A program made the position numbers and the translations under genes. Under the pieces are notes generated by a model. That model made no database searches, was not told the DNA's origin, and was given only the letters and a program-made list of their open reading frames with translations. DNA of 64,000 nt from Amphiscolops sp. MND2022 (Eukaryota). Where the stretch lies: positions 51,708,001 through 51,772,000 of the forward strand of contig OZ076410.1 in NCBI GenBank assembly GCA_964187785.1, given 5' to 3'. The first letter of the stretch is position 1. Every line of letters begins with the position of its first letter. Shown piece by piece: positions 22,819 to 53,709 of the stretch.

Positions 22819-22936
22819 GAAAACGTTTTGGGAGCTGCACGTTTGTCACGATGGTGACCGACAGCAGCCCGCTGAGCCACGTTCTAACTTGCAAGGATAT
22901 TGATGAAAGAACAACTCAACTGTACATGTACAATGA

Positions 22937-31600: not shown

Positions 31601-34070
31601 CTACAGGAGACTAGCTCAAGGACTCAATAGATCCTTGTCGGCCTTTTCCAGTTTCATGAAGGAAACATTGGACCAAGTCGTAAAGGCGGACCAAGGTGCA
31701 CAATATGTGGACGATACTGGAATCGCAGCTAACGACGCCGACCACTTCATCAAAAACCTGAGGACGACCTTTGAATGCATCAGAGAAGCTGGACTAAAAC
31801 TAACGATTCACAAATGCCATTTTGGCGCAAATGGAAATGATTTTTTGCAAAGGACCAGCACCCTAGAAGGTGCCAAGCCACAAATAGAACGCATCCACAA
31901 CTTCCTGGAAAAAAGTCCAAGAAGGCATTACAGCAATGTTTTAGCTTCCTCAACTCTTATAGGAACGACATACCAAGTTTAGCAGAAAAAGTAGCACTGT
32001 TTTTTCATCTCTTTCAAAAAGAAGAACCAGTTCCAGTTACCACAGAGCTGGCACAGCAATTCAACGAGAATAAACAAGATCTTGACAGGTGTAGCCAACT
32101 AGCCATGAAACTTCCGTTACCGAATAAACCACTGGTCCTGACGTCAGACGCAAGTTTCAAAGCAGCCGGTTATGCCATTCTGACCGAAGATGACCCAAAT
32201 CAAGAGTATACTTCTGCCAAAAAGTCCTACGCCCCAATCGGCAATGGATCGAAAACATTATCTCCCTCACAGTTGAAAATTTTAATATATGCAAAAGAAT
32301 TCCTAGCCATATATTACGCCTCCAAGGAGTTTGTACATGTTTTTTGGGGAGTACCCGAACCAATATCTTTTCTCACAGATACAAATTCGGTCACGAGGTT
32401 CTTCCAGACAAAAATTATATCACCGCTGCCCTGGAATGCTTGTGATTATGTGACACTATTCAATTTTATCATAGCTCACATTGCAGGCAAAAACAACACA
32501 GAGGCAGACTACCTGTCGCGTGTGGAAACGGATCCAAACAAAACATTGATCCTAAAAATACGCGAGGATGTCGAAACCAGGCCCATCGAGGTCAATGTCA
32601 ATGTCCAATCAGCCGGCGTGTCCGAGGAGGAATAAGTGTTCTTCACAGAAGAAGATTAAGAAACAGAAAAACAGATTTGTGAAATTGTCCAAAACAGAAA
32701 AAATTGTCCAAAACGGGACACAAGGTCGATAAGACTGTAATACAAATTGCCGTGATATCCAAAAGCACAATGGATGAGATTATCAATTTCACCTAGAAGT
32801 TACACAGAACCAAACAAATAATGTTTGGAACAACCTAGATACCCGATTTTACTCCCACTCAAAACGAAAATACAGAAAAAAGAATGTTCAGAAAAATTCT
32901 TCAACAAGACATTCGGTAGAAACACTATTTGAACAACTTAGACCGATAAGTCCTTAAGGACGAAATTGTCTCGAGGCAAGTACCATCAGATACTACTTCC
33001 TAAACACTTAATAAAAAGAACTGTTGCAGGCCTTACTAACAAGTCACGGCACACAAACGCTACAAAATCTACAAGAAATCCAACAAGAAATCCACCCAGG
33101 CATAGCAAAACTTGATAAAAGATGGGTATGAAAATAAAAACGTGTGCCAAGGACAATAGCGTCCCAAATAACGCAATAATGCCTGAACTGCCTAACTTGA
33201 CGGAATGGGGATTAGGTCCAGAAGACGTCATTCAAACTGATTTACTGTCAAATTTACCCACCAGTGGCGGATACCAAACAGTGATGACAGCAATTGATGT
33301 TTTCTCAACATACTTATTCGCCTACCCGCTAATTGAGGCGAGAGCTTCAAATATAGCCAAAGAGTTATTTAATATCATGACAAAAAACTCAATTTTGCCA
33401 ACAACCCTCAACATAGACAAGGAGTTTGCATTTACGTCAACAATTGTAGCAGAAACTGCTCAAATTTTGAGAACAACACTCGAATGCGCAACAACTAAAC
33501 ATTCCCAAACTTGGAAGGACGCGTGCAACTCTCAAGACAAATTTGAAAATGACCTCGGGGGAATACCGTCATCAATGGAACCAAAACTTGCCACTAGCAG
33601 TGCTCAACTATAACACTACATATCACTCTAATATGGGATGTGAGCGGAGCAAGGTATTCCAGTCCCTACAACGTTCCAGATTACAAATTAGGAATTACCC
33701 CTATTAAAAAGTTCCTGCAAACAACTGAATTTGTGGGAGACTAAAAGGACTCAAAATTTGACTGTAAAACCAAAAAAACAATGCAGTTGTATCAAACTAC
33801 AAGTATTACTATGACCGGAAGGCCAAGGCTGCCTCGCTTAAAGAAAACGATCATTGCTTTACTGTACAATCTAAACCCGACAGCCAGGGATCAAAAATAC
33901 CGTTCGGAGACTTTAGATTGATGGACCATTTGTCATTCAAAAGGTGTAGTCAAATAACAATTACATTGAACGTCGACTAAATATCAACAAAACACAGATT
34001 TTACACTGAATCAGGCTCAAAAACTTTGTCCCAAACACGCCCAAAAAGGACAAATTATCCGAAGAGAAAC
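28343..34070 (+). pseudogene. E2 gag-pol pseudogene
   Basis: Gag (TFDDKSKKFELF; degenerate knuckle ICGTKNHPTERC), protease (LTIDGLIHAGALSS), RT (QYVDDTGIAA ~31700), RNase H (LTSDASFKAAGY, YAKEFLAIY), integrase (VIQTDLL, DVFSTYLFAYP). Many frameshifts. Confidence 0.92.
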
Positions 34071-34599
34071 TACAGCCAGTAGAAACTATTTCGATTAAGA
34101 GCTGTTTGAACCGAGAAAAGATAAATAGCTGGATACGGCCACACGCCTACTGAACGACGCCACAAGCGACAGAGTGGACTATTACGTCAGTGAAGAGAAT
34201 GAAAGCCGCAGCGCGAATGATACCGAAAGCTGCAGCGAGGAAAAGAATGAAAACGAAGGCAGCGAGAAGTAAAAGGTCCAAGACCAGCCAGCAGCCGAGA
34301 CGTGACGTCCCCGCTGAATGAACCGGTGGCGAAAATAATACCGTGAAGGGAGTATCAGAAAAGGAAAATCCTAAAGAAAAGAAACTTTTTGCCCCAGATG
34401 AGGAAAATTTAATCTTCAATCTAACCCCATCCCAACTTCACTGAAGAACACAGATACTAGTCAGACATGTAAATTAAGGTCCTTTTTGTCCTTTTGACTA
34501 ACCGACTCACTTTGCTTGTGAATAATCTGAATACCCAAAGTACTCATTGGCGATCATAACAAAAAATAAAAATCCAAACGACAATGAATACCATAAACA

Positions 34600-35187
34600 C
34601 AATCAAACTGCTGAAAAGTAAATACAAATACTCATAACGGACAGTTTGGAGACACACAACAACAAAAGACAAATGTACACTATGTACATTTTGTTTTTAG
34701 AAGAGCTGCAATCAGAGTTCCTCGAAAGTTGTACGGCATCAGTTGACTCAGTCGATCGAAATGAACTATCTTCTTGCTTTTGCAAGGAGAACGTTTGGAT
34801 TGCTTACCATCAGCACTAGAAGAGGATGAACTAGCAGAGCGAGTGATTGGTTTCGGCTGCTTTTCCAGAGTGTTCTGAAAAAAACATGAGACTTTATGGA
34901 AACTGGTTTTTCCAAAAAGGTCGCCATGAGACCAAGGGTCACCGGGAACACTTCCACTACTGAAGTTGGCCCAAGGTCTCGATAAGTGTGCAGGGAAGCC
35001 TCTGTGGTACAAATAGCAACAGAGTCCGGCACGTTAGCAAGATAAGATTGGGCAGGCATTGTTACCTCGGAAAGCCGACTTCGGGAATCTCCACTGTCCA
35101 CCCCAGGGAATTTGACAGCTGTTTCTCCTGCTCTAAAGGCAACGTTAACAAGACAACGGGATCGGAACTATTTAGCCCACGTACAAT
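34600..35187 (-). pseudogene. E2 antisense gene, C-terminal piece left of the E3 insertion
   Basis: Continues in frame from ORF 48619-49026 once E3 and one TSD copy are removed (...FLADISLNAV|IVRGLNSSDPVVLL...). Confidence 0.75.
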
Positions 35188-35192
35188 GTCGG

Positions 35193-36676
35193 TGTGATAA
35201 TCCTCCTCTGCGCAGTTTTCATTTATCTTTATAGTATCATCTAAGTCGAGATTTTGGATGGGTGGAAATCGGTTGAATTGGAGTTCTAAGTTCGTTTGTT
35301 TCTGATGGCCTAAAAGAAAAAGCCTGCATTCTGTTTTCTCAATTTTCAGTATCAGATGCGTTTATTCCACCGTCATCGCGGTTTTTGTGTTTGGGCGTTT
35401 CTATTCTCGATGTAGTTTTTCTATTCATTATCATTTCTACTGGGAATTGATTGTGTTCTTCTACTGTTTTTCACTTCTCTTAACATCCTTTCTAACTTTT
35501 CGTTCATCTCTTTCCTTAGTTCTGCCATTTCTTTGTTCGTATTATCCGTTACTCTTTGTGTTCACACTTGCATTTGGTTTTCATTTTGTCTAGAATCATT
35601 TAAAACAACTTCTCGTAACTGAACCAACATTATCAAAAATACTAAGATGTTCAATCATAGTCTTATTACCTTGCGATGCCTCTGCTTCTGAAGCTCTTAG
35701 GTATTTCTCAAGTGAGGGTGATTGTCTTCGTCTGGATCTCCTATTTCTTTTGTTTGCCATCTTAGGTTGGTTAAACTAATGTTTGTTGGAGAGAAGAATT
35801 TCGATTGATTCGGATGATGAAATGAAATAGAGTTGGGAACAAAGTTGAGAAAGTTGTTACTAGGATAACACAGACTCGTGGTGAGATAATTTGCAAAAAG
35901 TATTTCCAAAAAGGTAAGAAAAGTAGGTTTCATCAGTTTGGAAGTTTTTTGAGGAAGGTAATTTTATGGTGTTTTTCTGACTCTCTTTTTTATCGCGGTC
36001 TATTTTTGGCAAAATGACATTACGTGACCTGTAAAAATAGCGCCATTTTATTTTACTTGACATAAAAAGAGGTTCTTACATGACATCATTCCAATGAATA
36101 GGATTGTCCATGACGTGATCATCTGCCTTATGATTGGCAACAGCAATTCAATTACTGTAATGTTAACAAAGCGTTAATGGAAGTGGATGTATAGTACAGT
36201 ATGACTCATTGTTTTTATAAATCGTTTGATGCTGAATGTTTTCGAAAAAACACAGAATAGTCATACTGCTAAGAAGTTACGTCGGGAGTAATAAAGGAAC
36301 AAAATTATCTTGCATTATACTGCAAGCTCAATCCTGCAATCTGATTGAATAGTTAATTCAATATAAATTATGCTCGTACAAAGATGAGCACACTTCTTTC
36401 ATTTCACTGGTAAATGAACGGAGTAGCATCATGAATAAGGTCATTGTTTAATTTATACCGTATGTTTGTTTACACACGGCTCAGCATCAATGGTGGGATT
36501 TACGAAACATAAGCAACAAACAAGTTACTGCATTGCTGGTGTTAAAACATTACAAATAAGTTTACATGACTTAAGTTTGGAGCGATAATGAGTTTTTAAT
36601 GAGTTTCTGCTGACTGGTTGAAATATTTGCCTTTAGTGTTGCACTACGGACCCAACGCAAGCTCTAGGCTGCGACA
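35193..36676 (-). repeat. E3 3' LTR
   Basis: Homologous to 47166-48696 (roughly 80% in stretches compared by eye). Contains the gag start and ends ...TTATCACA. Confidence 0.88.
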
Positions 36677-37450
36677 GGTCAGCATTCTTAAAGCAAATAG
36701 GTGCAGCTTCAATCCCGTCTAAATAGGCCCGTGACCTGATATTTCTGTCTCTAACTGTTTCGTCCGGGTACTCTGTGGCGACTGTATAGTCGGCCAGTGC
36801 GTCGAGAGCGACCTCGTCAAACGTCCTTCCGCACCAGTGGCAGTTCCCGGTGGCACGTGGGGCATCACTGGCTGTCCGGTTTTGTTGCCCGTGAATTGTC
36901 ATATTTCTGGGTAAGATAGGCCCCAGTCACTCCAGGGTTACTATGTACCCCTTGAAGATCCAGGTACAGTTGGCCAGTAGAGTTTTAGTAGTATCCAGCA
37001 TTGCTGAGATTGTCAGGGTGCTATATGTTGGTAACCCTGCTGGGCCAAAATTGGATCGCATCTTGAGAGACTAAGTTCGCCTCGTGCAAAAGTGTATTCG
37101 GGGCATTTTACTGGTCTCTAAGAGGTGTTTGTAAGATTCCTCTGCCATGATTATTAGGCTGTATTCAGTTAGATACCGGTACTTCCCGTGGAATTGTATA
37201 GGGGTTAATGGTTGAATCATAGTAGGACCATTCCTACTAGTAAAGTAGTGGCGTTTTTGGGGTTGTTGTCTGATGCTGGTGGTAATTATCTTATGAACCC
37301 TTCAGCACGGGTCCGGGGAACGGCTAATTTTGGTCTGCCGTATTTATTTCTCGCCTCTTTTGCAAAATTGGCGTTTAGTAGCAAATCATCCTATGTTGTA
37401 TCAACCGATACGTTTGGTGAATAATCGCAGAATGAAACCCTTCCACTTTA
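36633..37450 (-). pseudogene. E3 ORF3 remnant overlapping the 3' LTR
   Basis: ORF 36633-36902: GNCHWCG...NIRSRAYLDGIEAA...DLSQPR, homologous to E2 GCSDC...RIRKRDFLDGISAG. The upstream limit is uncertain. Confidence 0.6.
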
Positions 37451-38466
37451 TTTCAATTGATGTCGATTTTCCCAATTTTGGGGTACCGTAGACAATTCTC
37501 GATATAATCTTCTTTCTAGTTTACTGCTTTGCCGGTGTTTTGAAGGCGGTTGCCGGGTAGTGCTCCTATTTCTTCATTTAAATAGCTCCATAACAAGAGA
37601 TAATTCACCTTCTGATTTCTTTTCATGGTGACAATCACTTCAATTTTCATACTCCACAAGGTGTCAATGATGGAAATTATTTGTAAACAATTCATGAATG
37701 GAAACTTGAACGATAAATTTCGTCAGAAAGTAGGCTTATTTTTTTGGTTTTACATTTCTTTTTTTGGCGATATTGATATTACATGTGTTCTAACTAACAT
37801 CAAAAAAATGAAAACAATTTCGTGACTCGCAAGTTTCGAAATCGATTTTATCAGTCTTCCTAAATCATGTACATATTGCCTCATAATGCCTATTCCAGCA
37901 TTAAAATGTCAAATATTTGATGCATGATGGTCAGTTTACGATGAAGATGAAGCATGTAATCATATGGTGTTGATCTGTTTTAGGTCAATCTCAGTTAATT
38001 CTTTACTGCATGATGCATTCTGCTTCCGCAAATGACCTTAAGCTGCCATCAGAGGGCGGAGAATCATGTGCGTGTAATTTGTTTCAGCAATGCCGTTCAG
38101 GACAGCAACCTTTCTGGCAGTTTTTATTGGTCCGTAATTAGCTCATCCAATCAGCACACAGTATTTGCGCAAATATGTTAATTTGTCATGCTCGAAATCT
38201 GTTCAGCCGGAAGCCACGCCGCAACGTTGTTTGTTTTTGTGGTCGAAGTAATTCTGTCCAGTAATTTCCAAGTTCGTCGTAATTGCAACCAACTTGCTGC
38301 GCATTTTCTTGTTTTTTTTTCCGCAAATTCGTATCTTTTTATGTTTTAGTCAATTCTTTTATTCTTGTAGCTCTGTTTTTCATGCATAAATACATAAATC
38401 ACAACACTCCATTACTACCCCTCTAGTTTTCATTGTTGATTACTCCCATTCTTTCTAATTTCAATC

Positions 38467-40900
38467 ATGGGCAAACCTGGACCATCAGCAATCCGCCGCA
38501 AGCAGGGTGCTCCTGTCTTTTACCCAGCCACGCAGCCAGCGGAGTCACGAGCCAACGAAGTTGATACAACGAATGGTGAGCTTGAATTCAATTCTTTTCT
38601 GACACAGTCGGACGATATGTTGTTTTTTGAGACGTCTCAATTTTTTATTACAAGTTGGCCAGACTGACAATTATGTTGACTATCTTAAGATCTGTCAACT
38701 TCCGGTTTCGAATTTTGAGCGGAAATATCAATTTCTTGTTGCTGGTTTAGGCACAATTTCCAAATTTTGTTTCCGATTCTTCCCCAGCTAAGCCAACGCG
38801 CATTGAAACAGGCTCTGTGATATCTAAAGTGGCCGTTGCAGTTCCGAAGCTTCTCTGTGAACTCAATCCTAAATTCAGTCTTGACAACTTGCCTCCAGAA
38901 TACACGGGTTTTATTGGATGACGATTTCGATCAATATGTTGAGACTTCAGGTTCTCCGAAAGAAAACGTCACAAAATCTGACAATTCTTCTGTAAAGCAG
39001 CCTACGAATACTACTAACCTCTATCTCGATGATGCACCTATTGACGGGTTGCAACCTACTACATCATCACGCAAACTTCTGGACAAAGTTGCCATTGTAT
39101 TACCATTGGAGTTGATTTCTAACTTTGTCAGTTTTCTCGATCTAGAAAGGATCACCGTTCTCCCGCCTCCTCACCAGCGGCAATCCCCGCAAGAAGAGGT
39201 CGTTAGAGAGGAAATCAGCGGACCCCGATTGTTCTACTGATCGAGGTGATCCGATCAACTCCCCCAGCACACCCAAAGACACTGGAGACACCAGACTAGA
39301 AAGGCTTCTAACGGAGGCATCAGAACAAGCAAGTGCTAGGTTACAACGAGCATGCTTCAGTGTCACTTCTGGGACTCCACCTTATTCCGCTGCCATCTCC
39401 GAAGCCATGGGAGATACTGGAAAAACGTTTCCCTACTCAAAAAGGTTACACCAGCTCAAGAAGAAGAAGATTATTCAAATTCTTCTGATTCAAAAATGAA
39501 ATTGAATCGGATTTCTCTTCAAGTGAAGAAAAAGATCGAAAGGAAAAACCAATAAAGCGACAGAAGAAAGAGAACAAAAGTGCCCTCACTGGAAAACGTG
39601 CAGAAGCACGTCACACTTTGTCAGGCTGGTTGTACCATAAATACCCAGTCATCAAATTTTTAGCTACTGCTTTTTCTGGTGCAGTCCGATACCCCACATG
39701 TATCACTGCAGAGTGTTTTTGTAGAACTCTCTCTGAAGACCAAGGGGCCATTAGAAATCCTTCAACTCTAGCGCTCAGTTGCTCATTTGTTTAAAGAGCA
39801 CCGAATCAGAATGGAGACGCCTGCGCTACCTTTGGTCGACGAACACTGCAACAAACTGACTAGAATGCCGCTCAAGTACGCAAAGGACAGTGCTAGGAGA
39901 GAGTATCCCATAGCGAAGTTGGGGAAATTGGACAACGGGAAGAACCTGGAGGGACATCAGTGAGTTTACCGAACAAAGAAGTGCAATCCCAGCTCAATTT
40001 AGTCAAGTTTGGTCTAGTTTACGGGGGCCATTTAGACACCATCATCGCTTTATAGCACGATATCTTCCGAGAGAACAAGACAATTGAGCCGATATCCCAG
40101 TATGTCTGGAGACCTCATCGCGTTCTTCTAAGTTAATTCTTCTTTGTAAGTGTTTTTCTTTTGTTCGCCATAATTGTTAGTCGCTTGTTGCAGAGACTCT
40201 TGACGCACATGTTCCGGGAAGCGCTGTCTTAGTGCAAAACTTCAGGTGAGGCCAGTGGCAATCACTCTCTTCGCTTGGCTTCACTTCCGAGTGAGACGAG
40301 ACTTTTCATCAGTTCCTGATCCAGAAATTCCCTTCACAGCATGTGTCTTGCCACTTTCCCGGGGAGGATGTGTACCCCATCTGAGCTAATACCATCCATC
40401 AGCAGTTTCCTCGCTTTGCTGGACAAAGACGCTCAACTCCCATTTGTGTCAGGCTTCACCCAGCGTTTTATTTGGACGGTGTCCCAGGTGTTGCCGCAAC
40501 ACAGAAGTGTCTGTCAAGTCCGCAAGTTCGACGAAGAGGATCTAGAGGAAGCCCTTCTGGTACCAACAGTCCAAAACCCTGAGAGACTTGATATCTGGGG
40601 AGTTCTGGTTTTTCTGATGGTACGATAATGGTCGGTTTGCGCTAATTTATGGCTAACAGCCTTGCCTTGCCCAGACTTTCAAAAGGTAAGTTCATCACTT
40701 CATTCCGTGTTTTCCATTAGTCATTTTGTTCAACTTTATTTTATAATCAGACCAAGTCAGTCCGATTCAAATTTTTCTGGATTTTCTATAGTCCGTTTTG
40801 ATGGTTTTATCAACTTCAGGTTTTATGCAGATCAAACTTCAAATCCGCAATATCATATTCGATCTTTGCTTCTGAATGCTTTTCTTTCTTTTGGCGTGTG
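38467..40900 (+). pseudogene. E3 antisense gene remnant (antisense to E3 pol)
   Basis: Low-complexity N-terminal ORFs 38467-39555. Frameshifted finger YHCRV-x-FVELSLKTKGPLEILQL*RSVAHLFKEHRIR (~39710-39815), then YGGHLDTIIAL*HDIF...YVWRP and MCLATFP, which align with the E1 protein. Confidence 0.78.
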
Positions 40901-41899
40901 ATTGCATTGTAGCGCATTGCAATTTCGTTTTCTTTTTCTTTTAAACCTAAAAATACTCATTATGCAACATAAGGCTTGCAGCATAATCCAGCATTTTTAG
41001 TCTTCTCAACCCATTTTATTTCTTCTAATTTCAGCTGTGACTCAATGTTACACAATACAATAAGCAATTAGATATGTTGTGACGTAACACGATTCGATTT
41101 TCGTTGAATTACGCACGTTCAAATTTAGTCAGCGACTTTTCCAGTCATGTATGCGTCATCTTTGACCACGTGACAACCCGCTCGTTCGATTTCATTATGA
41201 AAATTATTCATTATCAGTTTGCTTTAGAGCGTCCCTAACTTCGATTAGGATCTGGTTCGAGCAGTAGAGATTCTGGATTATCTGATTTCGAATTAGGATA
41301 AAATTGTGAGCCATTTGCGTAACAGCAGAAGAATCCCCGCCATCAGATTCCATATACAAGAGGTTTATATTTTCGATTATCTTTTCCTACGCTTCCTGAT
41401 CAATATGTATTGGGATGGATGACTTAATCATCAAGGATCGCGTGTTTGTTGGGCGCTTCTTCATCACCCGTAACATTCTTAGCCAGCGTTAGTTTCCTTT
41501 TCCCTAATTGTTTAATGTTCAATTCTTTTCCTTTAGCGGTTTTTGTATCTCGTCAGTGGTGTTTTGTCAGTGTTTGCTTGTTTGCTAGACTTTTAGATTC
41601 ATTTCTGTTTTTTGTTTCAAAAAAGTGCGTGCCAGTGTCTCTTCTGGTGTCAGTATCTAAATGAATATGAGAAATTGCAGTTTGGGTTAGGTCTTAAATT
41701 GTATTTTTCATCACGTTTATTTGTGGGTAGTTTTTCTCTTTGAATCTCAACAACATCCTCTGATAATGTTGTTACTTGACTTTCATCTGTATTGTTTGGG
41801 GAATTTTCTGCATCCATATTAGGAGTAGGCGGTAAATCTTGTTGATCGTCATTTATATTATTTTCATTATCTGCACTTTCTATAGGAGGTTTCCTATTT

Positions 41900-44800
41900 G
41901 GCGCAGTAGTTTGTTCTACCGTGGTCCCACAATTTTTTTTGCAATTTCGAGGGAGGGAGGGTGCGTGATTTATGGAAACAAATTCTTGTACATCATCTTG
42001 TTCATGATCGGGGAGTTCTATATCAAATGGGTTTGTACCAAAGTTTGTGTCCCAAGTGTGGGCGTACAGATCGTCACTGCTATGTTATCGTCTTTTTGCC
42101 AGTCTGTTTCTCTGACAAAGTTATCTGCTGGCGGTGCGCTAGGTGTGAATTTCCGAAAACGTACTCTGTGTAATAGTTGTGTTTTGTTGGTCCCCAGTCT
42201 GCGTACAATGTAATCATTGTTAGGCAATACTTTTTCAACTTTGTAGGGGCCAACCCATCTAAATTCTGGATGGGGAATTTTTGTTACTTGTGTGTCTGCT
42301 TCCGGGTTCAGTATGTAGAAATAGTCCGTTGTTGTTAACCGTGATGCTTTTGTTTGCGGTCATAGTATGCTTTGTATTTTAAGTATGACTGCTTGATGTT
42401 CTTATTAGTTTGATCATTCAATAGCGTCATTCTGCGTTTTACTTCCTCTGCAGTGTCGGATTGCGGAGTATCTCTTGGGTTTGGGTTATCCCCTAGCTTG
42501 TATTGTTCTAGTATGTTATTTGGTATTCTGCCGTGGAATACCCGAGTCGGTTCGCATAGCAAACTTGCATGGTGTCTTAAGTTATGATTGAGAACAGCCT
42601 GGGGCAGAGAATTGTGACAATTATGGTGAAAATCTCCGGTTGCTGCTTTCAACTGTGTTTTTACTATAGCATGAATGCTTTCTAGCAAACCAATTGTCTG
42701 CGCATGTTTTGTTGATGCATGTTTTAATTCAACTCCGAGTACTGTGGCTACTTCTCGTGTAACTTGTGAAACAAATTGGGTGCCCATGTCAGTTATTATT
42801 GTTTTTGGCAAATACGAATGTTTGCACAGTATGTCCATAAAATCTCCGAAACTGCAGGAGATTCGGTTTGTTGAATATGCAAATAAAGATCTTCAAAAGA
42901 CATCAATTGTTGTTATTATGTTGTCAAAACCTCCACTAGGTGGTAGATTAGGTAAAATGTCTCTTTTAGGTATGTTTTTTGGACAAAGGGCCCTTTCAGG
43001 GCAATTGAGAAGTTCGGTTATAAATAAATATTTTATGGGTAATAAATATTTTTGTCGAGCTTCTTGGATCTACTTCTTTATGATGATTTGCATTGAGCCC
43101 ATAAAATGCATGTAACAATTCATGTAGGAATTGTTTTGGAAGTAGAATTTGATAATGGGAAATTTGCCCAATACCATTGTTGAATTTTCGAGCTAGAATG
43201 TCTTGTCGAATTTAAGGATAAGGCATATTTTGTTGATAGTAATGAAATCGATTGTCTTCGGTGAATGGTGATTCATCAAACGGTTCTCCTTCAATCGTGG
43301 CTCTTCGGTTTCGAAGAAATGAATCAATGTTTTGTTCTAGTCGGATTTTTGCAGTGGTGTGACGGAAATGTCCTTCTCGATAGTTTACTGTACCCACTGT
43401 GGGTTTGTGGAAATGGTGTAGTTCCGTGACTTAATTTTCAAGTTCGTTGTGCGTTTTTGTTTGTGCTTGATGACGAAAAGTATCGTTTTGATTCCAATGG
43501 GTTTTTTCGTCAGTTTCGTCACCGTGGAGGAAGTAAAATTGTTCCTCTTCCGTTATGCCTGAGGACTGTATATTAACTTCGATAGCTTTTGTTTGTATAT
43601 CCTTTCTGAGGTGCATTTCAAGTTTTTCTGTTGGATTAACTTCTGTGCGTGATAAGAAACCAGCCGCTGTATTCATTGCTCCTGCCACATGTGCTATGAC
43701 GATGTTATACTGCAATACGTATTCACATGCATTCCATAGTGCGGGTGTATTTGTTTGGTCTGAAAACCGGTTGTCAGTGAAGAGAATTACTGGAAAGGTA
43801 CTACCACACATTAGGTGTCCAAATTCAGAAAAAAAAACTAAGAAAATGGTTAAAAACTCTTTCGCGTGGATAGACATTTTCAACTGTGTGGGGTTGGAGG
43901 TTTTTGAACCAAAAATTTTTGGCGCATACGTCTTTTGTTTTGATTGTAGTTTTTGTTGAGAATCATCTTCAATCATGATTGCATATCCTGCTGCCGTAAA
44001 GCTTGCGTCTGACATGAGGATTAATTGTTTGTCTTTGACTGGCTGTTTCAGTGTCATTTGGCACGACTGCAAAAGCAGTTTCTTGAGTTGTTCAAAATTT
44101 GCTGTGAGGTCGGTTGGGATGTATAATTTGTTGGTTTCTTTGAGTTTGAGTCATTCTGAGAGTCGTGGTATATAAGTTCTGTAATAGTTCAGAAGTCCAA
44201 TGTATCTTTATAGTTCTTTTTTTAATTTTTGAAACTTTGAGTTTATCCAAGAAATTTTTATTCGTCAACTTGTTGATGTTCTGCCAGGAAATCTACCAGT
44301 TTTTGACATTTTGACATTGACAATTCCAGTCCTGCATTTCTTATGCATTCCAAGGCTGCTTTGATGTTGACGCACAGTTGTGTGACAGTGTTCGCTGCGA
44401 TTCTGATGTCATCGACATATTTTGCACATTGGTCAGTTTTTATCAGTGTGTTTAAATATTCTCTCATGAAACTTGAGAATGCTGATAGTGATCGGCTTAG
44501 GCCTTGGACTAATTGTCGGAATGTGAAAGTTCGACTAGCAGAATTAAAGGCCAGCATTTGGATTGTTTGGTAGTCTGCCATTTGTAGACAATGGTAAGCT
44601 TGAGAGCAATCAAGCTCACAAAAAAATTTTCACTGCCATATATTGGGCAGCGTCAGATAGTGTACTGACCGTATGGTTGTTGTTGACGTAATCTGTGGTT
44701 ATTAAATTGTTGATTTTCCTCAGATCTACCAAGAGTAGCAACTTGCCATAAGACATTCTTTGTGCCACGATTGGACTCCCATGTTTCGAAATTGGTAAAG

Positions 44801-47732
44801 TGGTTAATATTCCATACTTGGGAAGTAGGGCAAATTTCACTGTGATATCGTCTTTTAGGTTTATAAAAGTTGAGAGACTCTGGCTGTATGCTGGTCGATC
44901 GTCGTTCGATATGAGTCTGACTCTGAACTCTCAATTTGTTCCAATGTCAAACCTCGGTCTTGCAAAAATATCAAGAATTTCAATGATATTTTTTCCAACG
45001 TTTTCGCGTTCGAAAGGAGTGAGCGTAGTGTGACTCCAATCAAAATGGTCAAAGAATTGTTTTCGTGATTTCTCGTCGTCATGTGGATTGAGTTTTTTTA
45101 AATGTTTTTAGTTCCAATAATTCAAGGTATTTCGTTTTTGTATTGGTGTATAAATTCTCGTGTCACCTGGGTGTTCAGATGTCGGGAACCAGTTTTACTC
45201 CGCTTTGTTATTTTTGTCATTAATTTTGAGAAGTTTCATGAAGTATACATCTGTAACTTCAATATGTTGATGCATAATGATAGTTGGTATTGAAGGACTA
45301 ACAAGTTATATATACTTGAGTTGTTCGGAGGTTGGGACACGAAAAAAACCTGTTGTCGTGTAAGGTAGTTCTGAGAAATTACCGATTTGGTATCCTATTG
45401 CAATATTAATGACTGTGCTGAGTGAGGAAACCAAACAAAGTGGATTGTGTTCTTCGAGGTGTTCAGAAGGCGTTACATTGCCTGTTGCATCATGATCAAT
45501 TAGATGTGGCATTCGGCTTGCAATGGATCACGTTTCACCTAGTTGTAGTGTGTATGTTGCCTCTGCAAGTAATGGGGTTGTTGGTCGTGTTTGGAGTTTG
45601 TGTTCAGGTTTCAATTGCATCGACAAATTTGGGAATGTTAAAACTCCTTGTCGAAGGTCAAAAATAGCATTGTTTCTTTTCAGAACACAACGTCCAATTA
45701 GAGGATTGGGAAGGACTTTCAATATGATAAAGTTATCTTTGAACATGAAATCTGCCACTGGGAAATAATACACAAGATGTCACTATTCAAAGTGAGGTTT
45801 ATTTGATAGTAGAAAGACAGATGTGTCCGTTTCTTTATTGATTGTAAGATGATTTTGTATTTCATCATCTATGGGGGGTAATGTTTGTAGTGTTTGTGTT
45901 GATGCAGGGTCGTTTGGTATTGCGGGTGTGTTTTGTGTTTGTAGAGGTTCGATGTCTTTTACTGGAAGAGGTTCTGATAACGTTTGTGGTGATTGTTCCG
46001 TTTCATTTTCATACAGATTATTGAGGTTTCCCTGTTTGTCATTATCAGGAGTTCCTGTTATGTATCTTTCAGGGGCATTTTGGAAAAAAGCATACAAATT
46101 ATCCTCTGACTCATTGTGTTGGATCTTGTGGGTCTGTAAATCGGTGTGTTGGGTGAATGTATCAAGTTTCGTAGGCTGAGGGGTTGGACGCTGGCAGTCA
46201 TCATCTCCTCGGGTTTTATGATGCGTAGCTGTATTTGTTTATATCCTTCAATGATGAAGGTTGAGCTGTGGGTGCTTTTAGATTTATATGTTTTTAGGAA
46301 TTTTCATAGCTCTTAATGGTTTTTTTTGTGTTTCCGTGAGTGTCCACTTGATAGGACGATTTTCCATGCTTGCTCCGAAAGAGCATGTTGGTTCGTTGTG
46401 TCCTGGTGCGTTACAATGCGTACATCGGGCGGCGTTCGTGTCTTCTTCCATCTTGCGGCGTTTGGCCAATTTCGGCAATCGCTCGCTTTGTGACCCATAT
46501 TTTTACAGTAACGGCATTGGTTGTCGTGAAGTGTGATATTGGGCAGTGTTTTTGGTGCTTGGTGTTTTTTTTGGAAGTTCCGACTTCTAGGTGGGCTTGA
46601 TTTATAAATTTTCTCAAATGTGATGGCTTTTTCGCGTATAAAAGACTTTCTATCATTTCTGATGCTATGTCACCAAAAACATTTTGTGCCTTCTTGTAAT
46701 TCCTCAAGGAAATCTGGTAGTTTTTTGTTTTCCGGGTCGAACGTCAATCGATGAAATCTTTGTTTCGCAGATGCGCTAGATTCGGGCTTAACATATTTCT
46801 GACGATAAACTACCAAAACGTCTTTCAAGGGTAGTTGCGGGCATTCGTTGGATGTTTTAAACGTTTTCAATGCCAAATCTCTCAGATGTGCGTAGAATTG
46901 ATTGATTTTCATTTCCTATGTTAGGTAGGGTTGCATTCGGAAAGTGGTATGAAAAAGATCTTCGAAGAATTCGAATTTTTCATTTTTTTCCAAATTCCCG
47001 TCAAACGTGAGTGTGTTTTTTGGGTGGACAAATGATGGTTGGGAGTTACATTTCGCAAATTTCTCAATTGCCGAAGCTATTTGGCTCACTGGAAAATGGG
47101 GGATGTTTATTGGTTCAGCATTTTGTGCATTTTGTAAAACTGTTGTGTTGTTTGAGTCTTCACGATGAAATGGTTTAGTAGCGCAGCTTTCATTCATGAA
47201 AATAGTATCATCTAAGTCGAGAATTTGGATGGAAATCGATTGAATTAGAGTTCTAAGTTCGTTTGTTTCTGATGGCTTAAAAACATTATCCTGCATTCTG
47301 TTTTTTTTTGATTTTCGGTTTCAGATTCCACCGTCTATTCCACCGTCATTGCTGTTAATGTTTGAGCGTTTTTTATCTCGATGTGGTTTATCCATTATCT
47401 TTTCCACTGGGAATTGATTGTGTTCTTCTACTGTTTGTTACTTCTCTCAACACCTTTTCTAACTTTTCGTTCATCTCTTTCTTTAGTTCTGCCATTTCTT
47501 TGTTCGTTTTATCCGTTACTTTTTGTGTCCACACTTGCATTTCGATTTCATTATGTGTAGAATCATTTAAAACAGCTTCTCTGCCCCTAACTGAACGAGA
47601 ATTATCAAAGTTTCTAAGAGTTTCAATCATAGTCTCATTACCTTGCGATGCCTCTGCTTCTGAAGCTCTTAGGTATTTCTCAAGTGAGGGTGATTGTCTT
47701 CGTGTGGATCTCCTATTTCTTTTCTTAGCCAT
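41900..47732 (-). pseudogene. E3 gag-pol pseudogene
   Basis: Gag (TFDGNLEKNEKFEFFEDLF; knuckle CTHCNAPGHNEPTC), protease C-terminus (DLRQGVLTFPNLSMQLK), RT (KYVDDIRIAA), RNase H (MSDASFTAAGY), integrase (TDMGTQF, QTIGLLES, WVGPY ~42250). Confidence 0.92.
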
Positions 47733-48696
47733 CTTAGGTAGTTTAAAATAATATTTGTTGGAGAGAAGAATTTCCATTAAGTCGGATGATGAAATGAAAT
47801 AGAGTTGGAAACAAAGTTCAGAAAGTTCTACATATCAAATTACTAGGATAAAACAGACATCGTGATGAGATAAACTGCAAAAGTTTTTTCCAAAGAGGTA
47901 AAAAAAAAGTAGGTTTGATCAGTTTGGAAGTTTTTTCAGGAATGGCTTTTTTGGGGGTTTTCTGACTCTCGGGGTCTGAACTTATCGGGGTCTTTTTTTA
48001 GCAACATGACTTTCACTTTTCAGAAAATCGTTATAACATCATATTTACGGAACTTCTGAAAAAACTGCCCCTTGTTTAAATGGACTTAAAACTAGGTTCT
48101 TACATGACATCATTTCTTCGATTAGAATTATGCATGACGTGATCAACTGCCTTCTGATTGACTACAGCAATTGCTGTAATGTTAACAAAGCGTTAGTAAA
48201 AGTGGATGTTTAGTACAGTGTGACTCGTTGTTTTTATATATCGTTATATGCTGAATGCATTAGGAAGAACACATATAAGCCATTCTGACAAGAGGTAACG
48301 TCGGGAGTATAAAAGGAAAGAACCTATCCTGCTTTATACTGCAAGCTCAATGCAGCAATCAGATTGAATAGTTAAGTTCAATATGCATTTTGCTCGTACA
48401 AAGGAGAGTATAATGTATTCGTTTCACTGATAAATGATCGAAGTAGCATCATGTATTAGGTGATTGTTTAACTTATATCGTGTGTTTGTTTTAACACTGC
48501 TTATCATTGAAGAAGGGGTTTACTAATTATAAACAACAAACAAGTTGCAACAATGCTGGTGTTAAAATATTACAAACAAAATTACACGACTTAAGTTTGG
48601 AAAGACAATGAGTTTTTACTAAATTTCTGCTGGCGGAGTGAAATATTTGCCTTTAGTGTTGTTTTCCGGGCCCAACGCAAGCTCTAGGCTGAGACA
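47166..48696 (-). repeat. E3 5' LTR
   Basis: Partner of 35193-36676. The inner boundary is approximate. Confidence 0.85.
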
Positions 48697-48701
48697 GACG
48701 G

Positions 48702-51700
48702 CATTGAGGCTGATGTCAGCTAGGAAAACCTCCAACAAGAAGACCACGTAGTTGCGAGCCTTTGCAGCGAACTCGTCCCGATTCTTCTCAGTCATAACAT
48801 CTACCTCAGTGTTGACTGAGTTCCTTCTTACTGTTCTCTCGTTGGCCCGTATCCGACATATAGCATCAAGGTCAACTTTCAATTTCAGCCGATGGATGGA
48901 ATCTCGACTGGATAGTTGTCGCAATTCTTGTCCTTGGAGGTCAGGTAAAAACGGACGAAGTTTTGTAACTCCATATAAGTCAGGAACGCTGCGTCCTTTC
49001 GTCGGGGGAGGCTGCTCTCGAAGCACTTGTTATCTGAGAAACAAATAACGGATGCAAGTTAACACTATCCGCCAAAAGCAAAGTGTCGACGATAGGGCTA
49101 CAAGACAACAGGGGTACTGGAAAGATTGGTAAAGTTGGAGTTGGATCATGTAAAATGAGGTGAGACTGAAATGGAAGGAAAATACTAACAATGTCCGACG
49201 ATGTGACCAAAAAGTTCCAATTTGAAACGGAAAGTTCGTCGTTTATTATTTCCCATTCAACACTCTGCGGCTGAAACACAATGATGCATTGTGTAAAAGA
49301 TCTCTGGCCTGCTCCTGTACTTTAACTTAGAAGAAAAAGGGGCAATAAAGGATGAAATAGGATTTACCTTGTGCTTCACTCCTTGATTAGATTGGGGAGG
49401 GGCCACTTAAGTTAGGTAGGTCGGGCTTCAAATTATTTATATGAGCTCAGAACATATTGCTGCGATGGAGAGGATTGCCAATTTGCAAGACGATATCGCC
49501 TATGAAAACAAAGCCCTTTAGAGCATCCCGTGAGGACTTGAAACCTAGTCATTGTGAAATTCTATTCTTTGACAATTCGGGTATCGATTTGATCCAAACT
49601 TGATTTTGGCACCCCTCCATGAACGTAATCGGAAATCTCATTTGAGAAAAGAAACTGATACTCCCAAAGAAACTGTCCTAACGTTAACGCATTATGATTG
49701 GGAGCGAGAAAACGTCAAAGCGAAAGAGGTACTGGAGCCCGTTGTCGAAATAGGAGGACCTCTCCAGCTGGGGCACAAGGTCCGCAAAACACACAGACAC
49801 GCTAACAATCTGAGGTCAAGAAGAGATTACAGAGAGGAGCCGGGAAATAGCGACCAACAGTTCAGACATGAGCTCGGAAGCTAAACCATAACGATAATGC
49901 CTCACGGTGCAAAGAGTATCTGCCTTCAAGAAGCGAATGGAAACTAAGCGAGAAGCTCCCACTGATTCGAACTCCAATGAATATAGACCGGTTGTCGCGA
50001 CAATGTGGAAAAGGTTCCGCGATCATGCAGAGAAAGATGTGATGAAAAATTGGCCTAAACAAAACGGTTTATACAAAACTTAGCGTTATGCTATATGGCC
50101 TGGAAAGACGTCCATGATGAAAGCATAAAGAATACTTACCGTAAGTGTAGTGGCTCCCCAGTCGAAAGATGCGAAAAGTGCCTGATGCTTTGTGACTGTG
50201 CACACTTGATTTCACAAGGTCCGGAGTAAATTCATGTCACCACAAAAGGGAGTGAAGCTTGCAACTAAAAAGATCACAAACGGAGTTCTTCACACTTGGA
50301 ATACGAGTCAGACCCCCCCATGAAGTCGTCGTAGGAGGGATACTTATCCCCTACGTCGACTCAAGGAGCAATGTCGAAGATTGTCTTCTCCTTCTGCAAT
50401 TCTGTGGGAGTCAGGACGTGTCCGTTTTTCCTCCTCACTTCGTAACAAATCTGGCCTGTGATCTTGTATGACTTGCGTAAATGTTGGTAACGCCATCACT
50501 GGTCTTTACGGAGGTGGGACTCAGCTTGAAAGTGTCTAACTTTCCCTCGACCACCCATCGAACAAATGGATACATTTGTTTTGCATATCTGGCTAAAGAA
50601 CCTATGCATGTTTTTTCGGCGTCAAGTGGGACAGTTACAAAAGTTCTTTTCCAGTTTATACCTTTTATAAACATAGGCGCGACGGCATGTCGCGCTTAGG
50701 CACGAGCAGAAACGTTCAATGGTCTGCTGAAGGTGTTACAAATTCTTTGTGTTCCAGGGCCCACAACCTTGTGAACTTATCCAGTCTCAGATGAGGATAT
50801 TTTGATGAAAGAACTAAAAAGACGAAGGAAAATTTTTTTTGAGAAATATAAAAATATGTATTTTTGGCAGAAACCCGAAGGCGGCATACTTCATGACGGA
50901 AACTTTGATAGTACAAAAAGTAGCCTACATACTTGCCTCACTTTGTGAGGGAGAAAGGTTTTCATATCTATTTCCAGTTCGGAGAAAAATCAGCTACAAA
51001 TTGGAAAAAAATGGAAAAAGCAGAAAAAATGTTTCATTACTTTATTTGCTAAAAAAAATCCAGAGCGAAAAAAATTTCGACATCACTTTTAGCCTAAAAC
51101 GTAGCCTACACAAGCCTCGTAAAATTAACGAAACCATGAACCCCATATTTGGTCTCGGTCATGATATATACGAATTTAAGTTAAAAAGAACCAAGAAATT
51201 TTTTTGGAAAAAATCGAAGCTTTTTTGGCAGAAAAACGAAGGCGTCATACATGATGACGGTAACTTTGTAAGTCCAAAAAGTAGCCTATATCAATGTTGT
51301 TCCTCTCGAAAGAGAACAGTTTCTGTATCTTTCATCAGTTTTGAGAAATATGAGCTACGAATGAGAAAAAAAAATTTCGAAAAAGTTTTGTCTTCTGTTT
51401 TGCCCAAAAACACCAAGTATGAAAAAAAATTTTGACGTCATTTTTAGGCCAAAATGTAGCCTATAAACCGCTTGTACAATTTACGAAACCATGGACCCTG
51501 TATTCGGTCTCAGTTCTGAAATATAGGTGATCAAAGATGAAAATTGGTCTAAAATAGCGTTTTTTCAAAAGTTCGTTTGAAAAAAAAAATCCATGAAGCC
51601 GAATTTTTTCGAAAACTTTTTTCGACGAAAATGTAGCCTAAGATCCTGCGCAACTTTTAGTGAAAACATGGTGTCCGTATCTGTTCTGGGTTTTGAGAAA

Positions 51701-52746
51701 ATTGCCTCAAAAGTTTGAAAAATTGGCACATGTCCTGAAATCTGCAAAAAAAACGTCACCATATGGGCATCTCGCAAAGCTCGTGCCCCAAAAAGCGTCC
51801 TTCATGACTTTGCCGGGGCGACCAAGAAGCCGGTGTTTTTCCGTGAAGGACTAGGGGTCACGTGGATAGAGTGTGTTGTTTGTCGTAACTCGGCCAATGG
51901 TTCACTGCTTGAGTTCGGTTTAGAGTGGGGCGCGAGATCTTCAGCCGCCCTTGCACCCTGCGAATCGAAAGTGTGAAATTCGTCGTCAGAACTAAGAGCA
52001 CCGTTTGTGTATCTTCCAACGTTGTCCTGGCCTTGGCTAGATTTCCCAATGGAGGAACATTGGACCCTAGTTCCCACCCGAGTTTGAGCCCACCTCGTAT
52101 CACTTCTTCTAGAACGGATTTCATCGTTTGAAACGAAGAAATGATCAAAGACATTGTGGATCCGGCGTCCGCTGAATGCAATAGTGGGGTGTCCCATGGG
52201 GAAAGAGATTGGAGCGCTTCTCCCTGATGCGGAAATTTGTCTAGAAGGACTGGACGGGTGTGGCATGGCTGATGATGCAGTGATCTCCTTAATTCCGGAT
52301 TTAGGAAGAACAATACTCTCAGATTTTGTGGCAGTTTGAAAACCTGGACCAATGAGTGTAGCCTGATTAGAACACGTTTCAGCTCCTGAGCTATTCAAAA
52401 GGTCTTCTACATCACTAGTGTGGTTCCGGAAGCATTCAACCTTGGGCTGTTTAAAACTAGACTCACTCATCAGGTCAATTTGAACCTCGGGAGTGGCAGA
52501 CTCATGGGTTGAAGCATCTGGGTTTCCCAAAATTCTAGTGATTGCCCGGGATTCAGAAGCTCTTGTGGTATCTTGGACAAACTGATTGGCATCCATTGCT
52601 GCAGGACTTTGCGGTAGAAATGTTACGCGGTGGTGGCCAGTTTGTTCGTCTTGTGTCGTTAGAGTACGCTCAATACAGGTTGTTATGCTTTCGTTCGGAG
52701 AAGAACATTTAACTAAGAGACTGGCCTGATCTGCTGGGAATGTCAT
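48702..52746 (-). pseudogene. E2 antisense gene, N-terminal and middle part
   Basis: 314-aa Ser/Thr-rich ORF 51802-52746, then INWKRTFVTVPLD and the frameshifted finger FFSQICKTNVSICSMGGRGKVRHFQAESHLRKDQ*WRY (~50490-50600), then LLRTL*NQ...FASFDW and YSLEFES, aligning with E1. Confidence 0.8.
50668..51789 (-). mobile_element. Helentron/DINE-1-like non-autonomous element (~1.1 kb)
   Basis: Subterminal inverted repeat GGCACGAGC (50699-50707 / 51779-51787), 3' stem-loop GCGCGAC-GGCAT-GTCGCGC (50677-50695), insertion in a T-run with no TSD, and an internal ~357-bp diverged tandem duplication. Removing it plausibly rejoins KVMKDAF and (L/FI)KGINWKRTF. Confidence 0.6.
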
Positions 52747-53709
52747 GTCCTTGTCGATTACTTCAGCAGTGTTCTGTGTGACAGATTTTTCTGACAGTTA
52801 TGGATGACTCTCAGATAAATTTTCTTTGGGCGACAAATCTAAAAAAAAGAAAAAAAACTAAAGCGGGAACCATCCGTTTACCGCGTTTAAAGTCTTCCGG
52901 AAGTAGACAGAAGTGAGCATTTGTGAAAACTTGTGTTAACTAGACAGGAAGTATCTGCGGATAAGATCTGCCAGAAACAACTTTATTATATTTCATGTGA
53001 AAAAACTTTGCTAATTTTATCAATTTTCAATTATTTTTCCTTATTGTATTAAATTCTTGATATGGAATTACGGCCTTGGGTGGCCAAACAAAACTTACTG
53101 CGATCCTATTGGCTGCACACGGTGAAGGTAGACAGCGTGGCCTTCAGCCATATCTTCATCCAGTTGAGATTCTCAAGTGATTTATGAGTGCCAATAAACA
53201 CTCATCACGACCCTTCAGGGCGACTTGCCGCCTCAGAGTGTTGAAAGAGTAATTGGGTGTCAACAATGGTCTTGTCGGCCTTTTCAAAGAAGGCTCGTTG
53301 GCGGGCTGGAGGATGATCACGAGGAAAATTTGTTATTGAAAGTTTACTTGAGGAATAGGATTGTGAACTCCCGGAAAACTCAGACTCATTTCAAGAAAGG
53401 AAGAAATCGTGAAAAATTCATTCTGACTTCCTTTTTACCAGTAATCAGTTGATACCGGAAACTACTGAACAACTCTTGCTCAGCAGAAACGTTGTTCTTC
53501 AAATCCCTCTAATTTGCTACGAAATTGTTGGAACTTGGAGCTGTGTCTGAATTGTTCCCAATGGACTTCGTCGGCGCTGCCCAGTAAGACAGCACCGTCT
53601 TTTATCTATCAAGAGACGAAGATAAGGTTATGGAACGGTTGAGCACGAGGAGGTCTCCTTCCTAGAAGTACTCTCATCCTCTGAGGATGAAGATGAAGAA
53701 GTCGAGATA

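Follow-up and report, generated by a model that had tools for sequence, protein, structure and literature searches.

A gene with a predicted hAT-transposase fold lies antisense to pol in a Ty3/Gypsy lineage of Amphiscolops

Which gene lies opposite pol in three divergent LTR elements of Amphiscolops sp. MND2022, where could it have come from and what might it do for its carriers? The elements share a window of 64,000 nt, the whole stretch of DNA analyzed here (GCA_964187785.1, contig OZ076410.1, 51,708,001-51,772,000, forward strand). All three are Ty3/Gypsy elements with the common order LTR-gag-pol-[antisense gene]-ORF3-LTR; E1 is intact, and E2 and E3 are decayed (Table 1). E3 (35193-48696) is nested within the E2 antisense gene, which is missing ~70-90 codons adjoining the insertion; the E3 flanks, GTCGG and GACGG, agree at 4 of 5 positions. 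The window contains no tRNA gene.

Table 1. Coordinates of E1, E2 and E3 features, counted from the first letter of the window
Feature	Position	Strand	Evidence or remark
E1 integrase end of pol	1..1584	+	Pfam rve, Integrase_H2C2
E1 pol frame, 1,950 codons; gag and 5' LTR upstream of window			whole element mapped
E1 antisense exon 5, CCHH finger and predicted hAT-transposase fold	1918..4379	-	860-codon open frame, model, fold searches; core without introns
E1 BED-like finger C-x2-C...H-x5-H	4072..4152	-	C76, C79, H96, H102 conserved in 5/5 lineages
E1 antisense predicted exon 4	4535..4663	-	AG/GT ends, phase 1, no stop; sites kept in 7/7 aligned copies
E1 antisense predicted exon 3	4785..5012	-	donor kept 7/7; acceptor aligned in only 3/7
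E1 antisense predicted exon 2	5117..5347	-
E1 antisense predicted first coding exon, ATG at 5749	5431..5749	-
E1 head-to-head region, antisense gene/ORF3	5750..5973	.	TATATAAG at 5844, TCTGCCAG at 5865
E1 ORF3, 190 aa, acidic, Ser/Pro-rich, extends into 3' LTR	5974..6546	+	no Pfam match
E1 3' LTR, TGT...ACA	6485..8258	+	97.5% identical to 5' LTR; TSD CTCCT (5 bp); includes copy of gag start
E2 5' LTR, eroded start, then degenerate primer-binding site	26609..28606	+
E2 decayed gag-pol	28607..34310	+	RT to integrase core 31204-34069
E2 antisense gene 3' remnant, left of E3	34859..35187	-	E 7e-20, E2-type profile; gene picks up again here (~35187-34859), beyond E3
E3 3' LTR	35193..36677	-	85% identical to 5' LTR over aligned columns
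E3 ORF3, decayed, matched part	36639..37525	-	tblastn E 3e-68
E3 antisense gene, decayed	38766..41484	+	finger near 39710-39815; last exon absent
E3 antisense gene predicted introns	near 40122-40193 and 40707-41248	+
E3 decayed gag-pol	41650..47180	-
E3 5' LTR with gag start	47181..48696	-
E2 antisense gene, decayed	48702..52716	-	core 48702-50774, finger 50481-50615, N-terminal part 51970-52716
E2 ORF3, decayed	53522..54290	+	tblastn E 3e-40
E2 3' LTR	54270..56860	+	insert interrupts at ~55270-56072

The gene order of the family fits Ty3/Gypsy elements: gag precedes pol, and integrase lies at the C-terminal end of pol with RNase H upstream. Pfam domains for protease, RT, RNase H and rve occur in relatives. 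The LTRs are of the TG...CA type, with 5-bp target duplications readable in 8 of 9 elements and in at least 8 of 10 in a second set. A primer-binding site, TGGTGACAGG, immediately follows the 5' LTR in lineages A, C and D. The 3' LTR is preceded by a G-run in lineage C and by a mixed purine-rich stretch in A; none is obvious in D. The lineage yields at least ~630 matches in the 1.07-Gb genome. It is a young and very abundant family, in which identity between paired LTRs reaches 100%.

The first-pass annotation had proposed that the three elements share the antisense gene, opposite pol and between integrase and ORF3. The strings it quoted are all found at the places and on the strands it gave, and the gene occupies this position in E1, E2 and E3. 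A profile trained without the E2 and E3 of the window recovers both elements, with matches in E2 at 50627-50319 (E 9e-17), 50262-50107 (E 8e-7) and 49995-49516 (E 8e-26) and in E3 at 39721-39927 (E 8e-10) and 39984-40667 (E 1e-35), while the best control score is 2.5 bits (reversed window and four block-shuffles). Lineage profiles without window copies likewise match E1 (E 4e-45 for the E2 type, 5e-37 for the E3 type). Plain tblastn with the E1 protein matches the E2 finger (50666-50481, E 7e-5) and misses that of E3. The E3 finger and downstream block are present but spread over frames by frameshifts; some of the frame breaks, which the annotation had repaired as frameshifts, are predicted introns.

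The gene has a fixed position and orientation well beyond the window. Pol is in place on the other strand at 39 of 40 systematically sampled antisense loci, and the 40th is flanked by LTR-like repeats and has no pol; two decayed E2-type loci (L097, L099) are outside this count. Conversely, 20/20 and 15/16 loci selected by integrase carry the antisense gene (35/36 in total), and none of the 36 has it on the sense strand. In maximum-likelihood analysis, pol and the antisense protein yield trees with the same branching at depth, the nodes that define the lineages have UFBoot 100, and patristic distances correlate at r = 0.92 over 67 elements (best of 999 permutations, 0.09). These trees omit L091 (poor pol), L209 (no pol) and the broken L077, L097 and L099, and L148 is represented by a short pol piece only. 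Nine conflicting pairs of well-supported splits fall within lineages, which suggests that the module has been swapped between close relatives; the pols of E1 and L069, for instance, are 97% alike and their antisense proteins 76%. The earlier view of an old, vertically inherited, lineage-wide module is supported, qualified by these swaps within lineages. The module probably goes back to a single ancient capture; its hAT-like character and its predicted introns had escaped the annotation, as had the nesting of E3.

The antisense protein evolves ~3.9 times faster than pol, and its frame and predicted introns are retained across lineages at 17-30% protein identity. As judged from codon substitutions, the gene is under strong purifying selection: dN/dS is 0.04-0.09 wherever dS is unsaturated (7 of 20 pairs; the other 13 are saturated).

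The antisense gene is predicted from its sequence to contain GT-AG introns at shared positions, and five predicted exons give 1,122 codons in E1. When splice sites are scored neutrally, GT-AG comes out ahead of the decoy dinucleotide pairs, six in all, in 18-24 of 24 elements. Among 58 introns at the top five sites, donor position +4 is A in 42, +5 is G in 46 and +6 is T in 43 (background 22, 23 and 33%), and a pyrimidine occupies position -3 in 58/58. In 21 elements from sub-lineages outside the training set (39-44% identity), an intron is placed at 217/218 in 20, at 381 in 20, at 422/423 in 13 and at 451 in 14; these counts come from a finder that forces GT-AG with a profile trained on GT-AG paths, and related copies are not independent. 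The lineage-A protein is continuous through positions 217/218, 381, 422/423 and 451. The pol tree is unrooted, as one very distant outgroup gave support of 40-44, so intron loss in lineage A and gain elsewhere are not polarized; such differences between lineages are open to study. Introns of this kind would survive retrotransposition because they are antisense to the genomic RNA, a natural route by which several spliceosomal introns could persist in a retroelement.

What the protein resembles emerges from its predicted structure. The AlphaFold2 model (pLDDT 84) has an RNase H-like core with a helical insertion domain, as in a hAT transposase. Foldseek places Hermes at ranks 1-10 (best E 9e-5), and VIA gives Hermes a Z of 13.5 over 399 aligned residues, with the next match at Z 7.1; the rmsd (5.5) and TM-scores (TM ~0.3 of query) are modest. 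The single BFVD match under E 0.001 is a hAT-domain protein, and Atlas feature matches are hAT-clan families (0.87-0.94). We conclude that the protein is predicted to adopt a Hermes-like hAT fold. At the sequence level this homology is undetectable: there is no Pfam or PDB sequence match, hhalign against nine hAT frames of the same genome gives a probability of 0.5%, and the family profile matches none of 40 hAT loci of that genome. A DUF4371 search found no match, with its controls silent too, and database searches return unnamed family members only. TRP28 (PF04195) has no match at E <= 1 in E1 or its relatives, and no inverted repeats of >=40 nt flank the antisense gene in the window.

The CCHH finger is invariant across 65 copies from five lineages. 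It fits the BED signature CX2CXnHX3-5(H/C) as given in part of PMC7471704; Pfam zf-BED gives no match. The same 65 copies have no conserved acidic residue following either strand 1 or strand 4, nor any conserved CxxH, R-W or E-helix motif, positions being set by secondary-structure order and one local anchor rather than by residue-level superposition. The model thus predicts that the catalytic D/D/E and R-W residues have been lost.

Copies that share 59-85% identity in exon 1 share 85-92% in the region between the antisense gene and ORF3 (5750..5973 in E1), and TCTGCCAG is found in 13/17 elements. On this pattern, the region is likely an internal promoter region. The motif C[AC]GCATA occurs in all three Db elements 9-18 times in the LTR, 4-10 times in the intergenic region, 24-27 times in an intron array and 0-2 times in pol. 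It is enriched in 4/4 Dc elements, where the intron cluster lies in a different intron and 3/4 have tandem arrays. Lineages A and C lack motif clusters and Da has weak ones; all three elements of the window belong to these lineages. The motif of lineage B is another one, CRE-like, for which a host factor could account, and a universal GC[AG]TA motif across lineages is not supported.

Across elements, ORF3 encodes an acidic product of 186-382 aa that is rich in Ser and Pro. It matches no Pfam family at E below 0.1 and is unlikely to be an env membrane fusion glycoprotein. Its C-terminal domain model (pLDDT 75) has no clear fold match (best Z 5.0) and no convincing Pfam match. The lineage-A ORF3 shows no clear homology to that of C and D and does not have the SUMO-binding-like motif. 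The 'LSQP' common to ORF3 ends was rejected as protein homology, being the LTR start read in frame.

We consider the chances about even that a Gypsy element domesticated a hAT-type gene whose protein binds DNA and regulates the element's own family, switching it on or shielding it from silencing. The protein likely binds the DNA of its own element, and such self-regulation is supported by the motifs that two sub-lineages have clustered in LTR, promoter region and introns. A hAT transposon or hAT-derived gene would have inserted into the ancestor in opposing orientation, between pol and the 3' LTR. Genomic RNA would carry the introns as reverse complements, leaving them unspliced to be copied by reverse transcription, and a separate antisense mRNA from the head-to-head region would be spliced normally. 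Lost catalysis would have removed the risk of cutting the element, with finger and scaffold retained. The protein could then bind short motifs in the LTR, internal promoter region and introns and promote transcription of its own family. In the weakest step, the acidic ORF3 with its SUMO-binding-like motif may act as a partner. We tentatively speculate, at well under even chances, that a whole class II (hAT) transposase was domesticated as the spliced antisense gene and that this gene and a SUMO-binding ORF3 together counteract silencing in a sequence-specific way, with target motifs in LTR, promoter and introns that co-evolve with the pair. Such a system would be the counterpart of VANC outside plants, and it could account in part for the spread of the lineage through its host genome.

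Other histories and roles can be weighed against this. Rather than a free hAT transposon, the captured gene may already have been a domesticated, intron-bearing host gene of the ZBED/FAM200 kind, taken at the DNA level. Atlas matches include ZBED1-, FAM200- and GTF2IRD2-type clusters, and the sampled hATs of the genome are single long frames whereas the antisense gene has shared introns; yet the sampled loci include no element-free copy, although only the best candidates were scored and a lone host copy could escape. We regard this origin as possible but doubtful. With the same origin, the protein could instead bind chromatin or LTR ends and tether or escort the integrase complex in targeting or nuclear import. 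Transposase scaffolds by nature bind both element ends and target DNA, E1 has a basic C-terminal tail and co-inheritance with pol is strict. The motif clusters, however, extend beyond LTR ends into introns and the internal promoter region, modules are swapped between near-identical pols, and the 5-bp duplications, inspected by eye, reveal no target preference; an integration role is improbable. Slightly less probable again is a repressor or competitor that dampens its own family or blocks rivals, for example as a dominant negative on host hATs or by sub-lineage exclusion. Dead transposases can inhibit active ones, the genome contains intact hAT frames of 597-697 codons, and the protein diverges fast between sub-lineages, but it has no sequence similarity to the sampled hATs and the family's abundance and youth speak against damping. 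Passive cargo, be it a nested hAT, a hitch-hiking junk frame or a role limited to antisense RNA, is very improbable and already largely refuted by the dN/dS values and by frames and introns kept at such low protein identity, even though nested insertions are common (E3 within E2) and antisense RNA roles are proposed for plant elements in part of PMC7264820.

Domestication as a self-regulator would have one mobile element taming the enzyme of another class, and the motif clusters make this function directly testable. LTR retrotransposons with antisense accessory genes have long posed a puzzle, and in this case a disarmed protein with a predicted hAT fold would be a concrete origin. We found no description of such an antisense module in the literature searched. 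Antisense ORFs are described for the plant Ty3/Gypsy elements Retand (TRP28/PF04195), maize Grande (gene23) and rice RIRE2 and for the fungal Boty, and the available parts of papers on the plant ORFs treat their origin and role as unknown and mention no resemblance between them and other TEs. The word 'intron' is absent from the text of PMC11963269. Unlike the Retand-type ORFs, the gene described here has no PF04195, its modeled fold points to a full-length hAT transposase, and an extra sense ORF3 lies head-to-head with it.

With Hermes, the antisense protein shares the predicted N-terminal CCHH finger, helical domain and RNase H-like core, into which a large helical stretch is inserted. Residues D180/D248/E572 and R318/W319, essential in Hermes according to passages of PMC6027215, have no conserved counterparts in it; identity is 9-12%, and the gene is carried along by an LTR element that has 5-bp duplications. 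The modeled BED-type finger and hAT body, and the proposed reuse as a DNA-binding regulator, resemble ZBED1/DREF, FAM200 and GTF2IRD2, of which ZBED1 keeps its targets active by SUMOylating Mi-2alpha (PMC7471704, in part). Here, in contrast, the domesticating host would be another transposon, and the copies are mobile and number in the hundreds.

The closest functional parallels are VANC of VANDAL elements and TnpA of Spm. Transposases can be sequence-specific activators and lose the DDE when co-opted, and TnpA is derived from a transposase (bioRxiv 10.64898/2026.08.24.746577, in part). The target motifs of VANC are short and form clusters and tandem repeats within introns and in intergenic and terminal regions (PMC5735166, in part), which is the layout of the motifs in Db and Dc. 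Both systems, like the one proposed here, combine an element-encoded, fast-evolving protein with clustered short motifs. They belong to plant DNA transposons with their own or unrelated proteins, whereas a retrotransposon here seems to employ a class II enzyme of foreign origin, with motif clusters in some sub-lineages only. Were binding and activation proven, element-encoded, sequence-specific anti-silencing would extend to retrotransposons.

The window carries three Ty3/Gypsy LTR elements, one intact (E1) and two decayed (E2 and E3), and all three have a real antisense gene lying between integrase and ORF3 on the strand opposite to pol. E1 encodes a gag of 506 codons, a pol of 1,950 codons, an antisense frame of 860 codons and an ORF3 of 190 aa; its LTRs end in TGT...ACA and it is flanked by a 5-bp target duplication. 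The gag start is carried by each 3' LTR, in E1 and in all full elements. The LTRs reach several hundred bases into gag, so that the primer-binding site falls inside the gag frame, and in E1 the primer site TGGTGACAGG is located after the 5' LTR, within gag. The motifs quoted by the first-pass annotation were all present in the window. Its claim that the three elements share the antisense gene holds by profile searches (E 1e-9 to 1e-45; best control score 2.5 bits), and pairwise search links E1 and E2 only (E 7e-5).

Features of the window (G000:C2:51708001-51772000; eukaryotic host assembly of 1.07 Gb, presumably from an animal)
Feature	Window position	Strand	Description
E1	1-8258 (3' half)	+	Whole element 15.5 kb; LTRs ~1.8-1.9 kb, 97.5% identical
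E1 antisense frame	1921-4500		
E1 first predicted intron	5348-5430	-	
Gag start in E1 3' LTR	7871-8258		
Palindrome	11046-11163 and 11689-11761		Loop-less, near-perfect 59-bp hairpin near a (TC)36 run
Long frame	12859-14520	-	One frame of 554 codons with multiple hydrophobic stretches, resembling a GPCR by eye; only a weak, unrelated Pfam match
Tandem duplication	19991-22821		1.41 kb, 98.8% identical; downstream of coding DNA that by eye resembles a decayed RNase H, apparently of another retroelement
Partial second copy	23932-25286		E2 5' LTR plus the beginning of gag, at 87-93% identity
E2	~26609-56860	+	Decayed
E3	35193-48696	-	Within the E2 antisense gene; flanks GTCGG/GACGG
MITE-like insert	55270-56072		67-nt imperfect inverted ends; splits the E2 3' LTR
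AT-rich repeat	57214-57845		185-bp unit, ~3.3 copies

Five genome searches targeting different sub-lineages gave at least 125, 150, 150, 150 and 55 matches, with scores computed for just the best of 5,469-10,962 candidates in each, and the five match lists may overlap. E1-type stretches have an LTR pair in nine of ten cases and pol, antisense frame and ORF3 in all ten. Among 20 E2/E3-type stretches, an LTR pair surrounds the same gene order in 16, some partly decayed, and four are broken or duplicated. Linkage of the homologues to Gypsy pol, whose general absence the first-pass annotation had named as refuting its claim, was found in both directions. A full RT-to-integrase pol lies on the opposite strand at the expected distance in 39/40 antisense loci, sampled at fixed steps down four match lists; the single exception is an internally deleted copy flanked by LTR-like repeats. 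Conversely, loci were selected with an integrase tail that has no close match among the candidates scored in this genome. The antisense gene was present in 20/20 of those taken at every seventh row and in 15/16 hand-picked for unusual match lengths, with scores of 399-950 versus 16-26 for the sense-strand control. The gene was missed only at L285, where the integrase is truncated as well. Matches 13.6 kb apart at C10:2574444-2602678 and the repeat layout of another locus (L142, 1-17062) suggest tandem elements with common LTRs.

The elements fall into lineages A1 (with E1), A2, B, C (with E2) and D (with E3). Between intact representatives of these, identity is 56-74% for pol and 16-50% for the antisense protein, which evolves ~3.9 times faster than pol (67 elements). 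Maximum-likelihood trees of both proteins from 14 representatives agree except for the placement of E3 within its sub-lineage, and patristic distances correlate at r = 0.92 (67 elements). This congruence supports an old, vertically inherited module, as first proposed, with one qualification inside the lineages. Fifteen well-supported splits are shared and nine pairs conflict, every one of them within lineages, which points to swapping of the antisense module among close relatives. The spliced antisense frame has a dN/dS of 0.04-0.09 in the 7/20 pairs with measurable dS, dS being saturated in the other 13. Among the candidates scored, the best matches in this genome to the database proteins P0110, P0230 and the pol P0508 reach only 33%, 52% and 49%, and the element family is therefore probably present in other organisms too. 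The P0110 frame shifts in character at the first core intron position (by eye). NCBI labels P0572, a pol fragment of the same clade, a cyanobacterial MAG protein; it is probably host DNA inside a metagenome bin.

A custom spliced aligner predicted GT-AG introns in the core, the part that is intron-less in E1. The predicted site at core 217/218 (phase 0) is shared by B, C and D, and those at 381 (phase 0) and 451 (phase 1) by C and D; another, at 422/423 (phase 0), occurs in D and part of C. Intron lengths at these sites are 52-1,088 nt. Lineage B has a second predicted intron near 427-451 of inconsistent placement. In the lineage A core no introns are predicted, and the frame continues straight across the sites of the other lineages. 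Under neutral scoring, 18-24 of 24 elements favoured GT-AG over the six decoy dinucleotide pairs, with concentrated positions, and the consensus GTRAGT / T-rich-YAG arose unprompted; this test is partly circular because GT-AG paths had been used to train the profile. Recurrence of the four core positions in 20, 20, 13 and 14 of 21 elements from sub-lineages outside the training is stronger evidence for the predicted introns. The E1 5' part has four more predicted introns, all phase 1, giving a stop-free spliced gene of five exons and 1,122 codons. Its donors are kept in 7/7 aligned copies, and one acceptor is aligned in only 3/7. The first of these introns is 78-91% conserved, above its flanking exons, and could contain a regulatory element. 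Just ahead of the antisense ATG, 7/7 copies have an AG resembling an acceptor, which suggests a noncoding first exon or trans-splicing. Introns would be retained through retrotransposition because of the antisense orientation: the packaged sense RNA holds them as CT...AC and would not splice. Indicator cassettes of retrotransposition follow the same established logic.

Searches of Pfam, PDB sequences and database homologues gave no named family for the antisense protein, and language-model features pointed to hAT-clan families, a lead only. An AlphaFold2 model from 66 sequences (pLDDT 84, pTM 0.69) retrieved Hermes at Foldseek ranks 1-10 (E 9e-5 to 0.012; next E 0.13). VIA-align likewise placed Hermes first (Z 13.5, 399 residues, rmsd 5.5), followed by ISCth4 (7.1), Tn5 (5.9) and RAG1 (5.7). 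The finger residues C76, C79, H96 and H102 are among just 28 columns conserved across five lineages (65 copies). In the same copies no catalytic residues are conserved at the strand 1/4 ends, CxxH, R-W (LDNW-anchored) or the E-helix region, sites located by the secondary structure of the model. Counting against the hAT assignment, comparison of the family profile with the Ac-type hATs of this genome was negative. As modelled, the antisense product has a hAT fold without being an active member of that group. At five loci (L176, L177, L178, L179 and L180), an Ac-type hAT transposase is encoded in one intact frame of 597-697 codons; some of these exist as near-identical copies, so hATs have recently been active in this genome.

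ORF3 and the antisense gene are arranged head-to-head, and the spacer between their starts is more conserved than the adjoining exon. It carries a single TCTGCCAG in 13/17 elements of A, C and D and in none of B. In two sub-lineages of D, Db and Dc, C[AC]GCATA clusters in the LTR, the spacer and one intron, with hardly any copies in pol. Different introns are involved, 381 in Db and 451 in Dc, and the intron clusters are tandem arrays in 3/3 Db and 3/4 Dc elements. In lineage B it is TGACGTC that clusters in the LTR and the spacer, but pol also contains 4-5 copies. No comparable clusters were found in A, C or Da, the lineages of E1, E2 and E3. ORF3 is acidic, and those of C and D have a C-terminal CxxC domain in common. 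A hydrophobic-then-acidic pattern, fitted post hoc, occurs in 16/23 ORF3s (15/17 in B, C and D; 1/6 in A) and resembles a SUMO-interacting motif.

Taken alone, the element anatomy and an origin from a hAT fold appear highly probable. For function, the most probable reading is that a hAT-type gene became fixed head-on in an ancestral element, that its protein lost catalysis, and that the dead protein was retained as a DNA-binding trans-regulator promoting transcription of its own family; as a whole it is about as likely as not. A role as an integration tether is unlikely, and one as a repressor or competitor somewhat more so. Passive cargo is very improbable. Whatever the role of the proposed trans-regulator, its donor could have been a host gene domesticated beforehand, a possible if doubtful origin.

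No published hAT-derived, intron-bearing antisense gene of an LTR retrotransposon was found in mainly open-access literature (main texts). The literature compared comprised PMC7264820, PMC11963269, PMC6431247, PMC5408684, PMC5735166, PMC7471704, PMC6027215 and PMC9911081, as well as bioRxiv 10.64898/2026.08.24.746577, in which the terms 'LTR' and 'retrotransposon' are absent. The window elements are members of Ty3/Gypsy. Their antisense module would function in the manner of plant antisense ORFs, and possibly of VANC or TnpA, but it is a member of neither.
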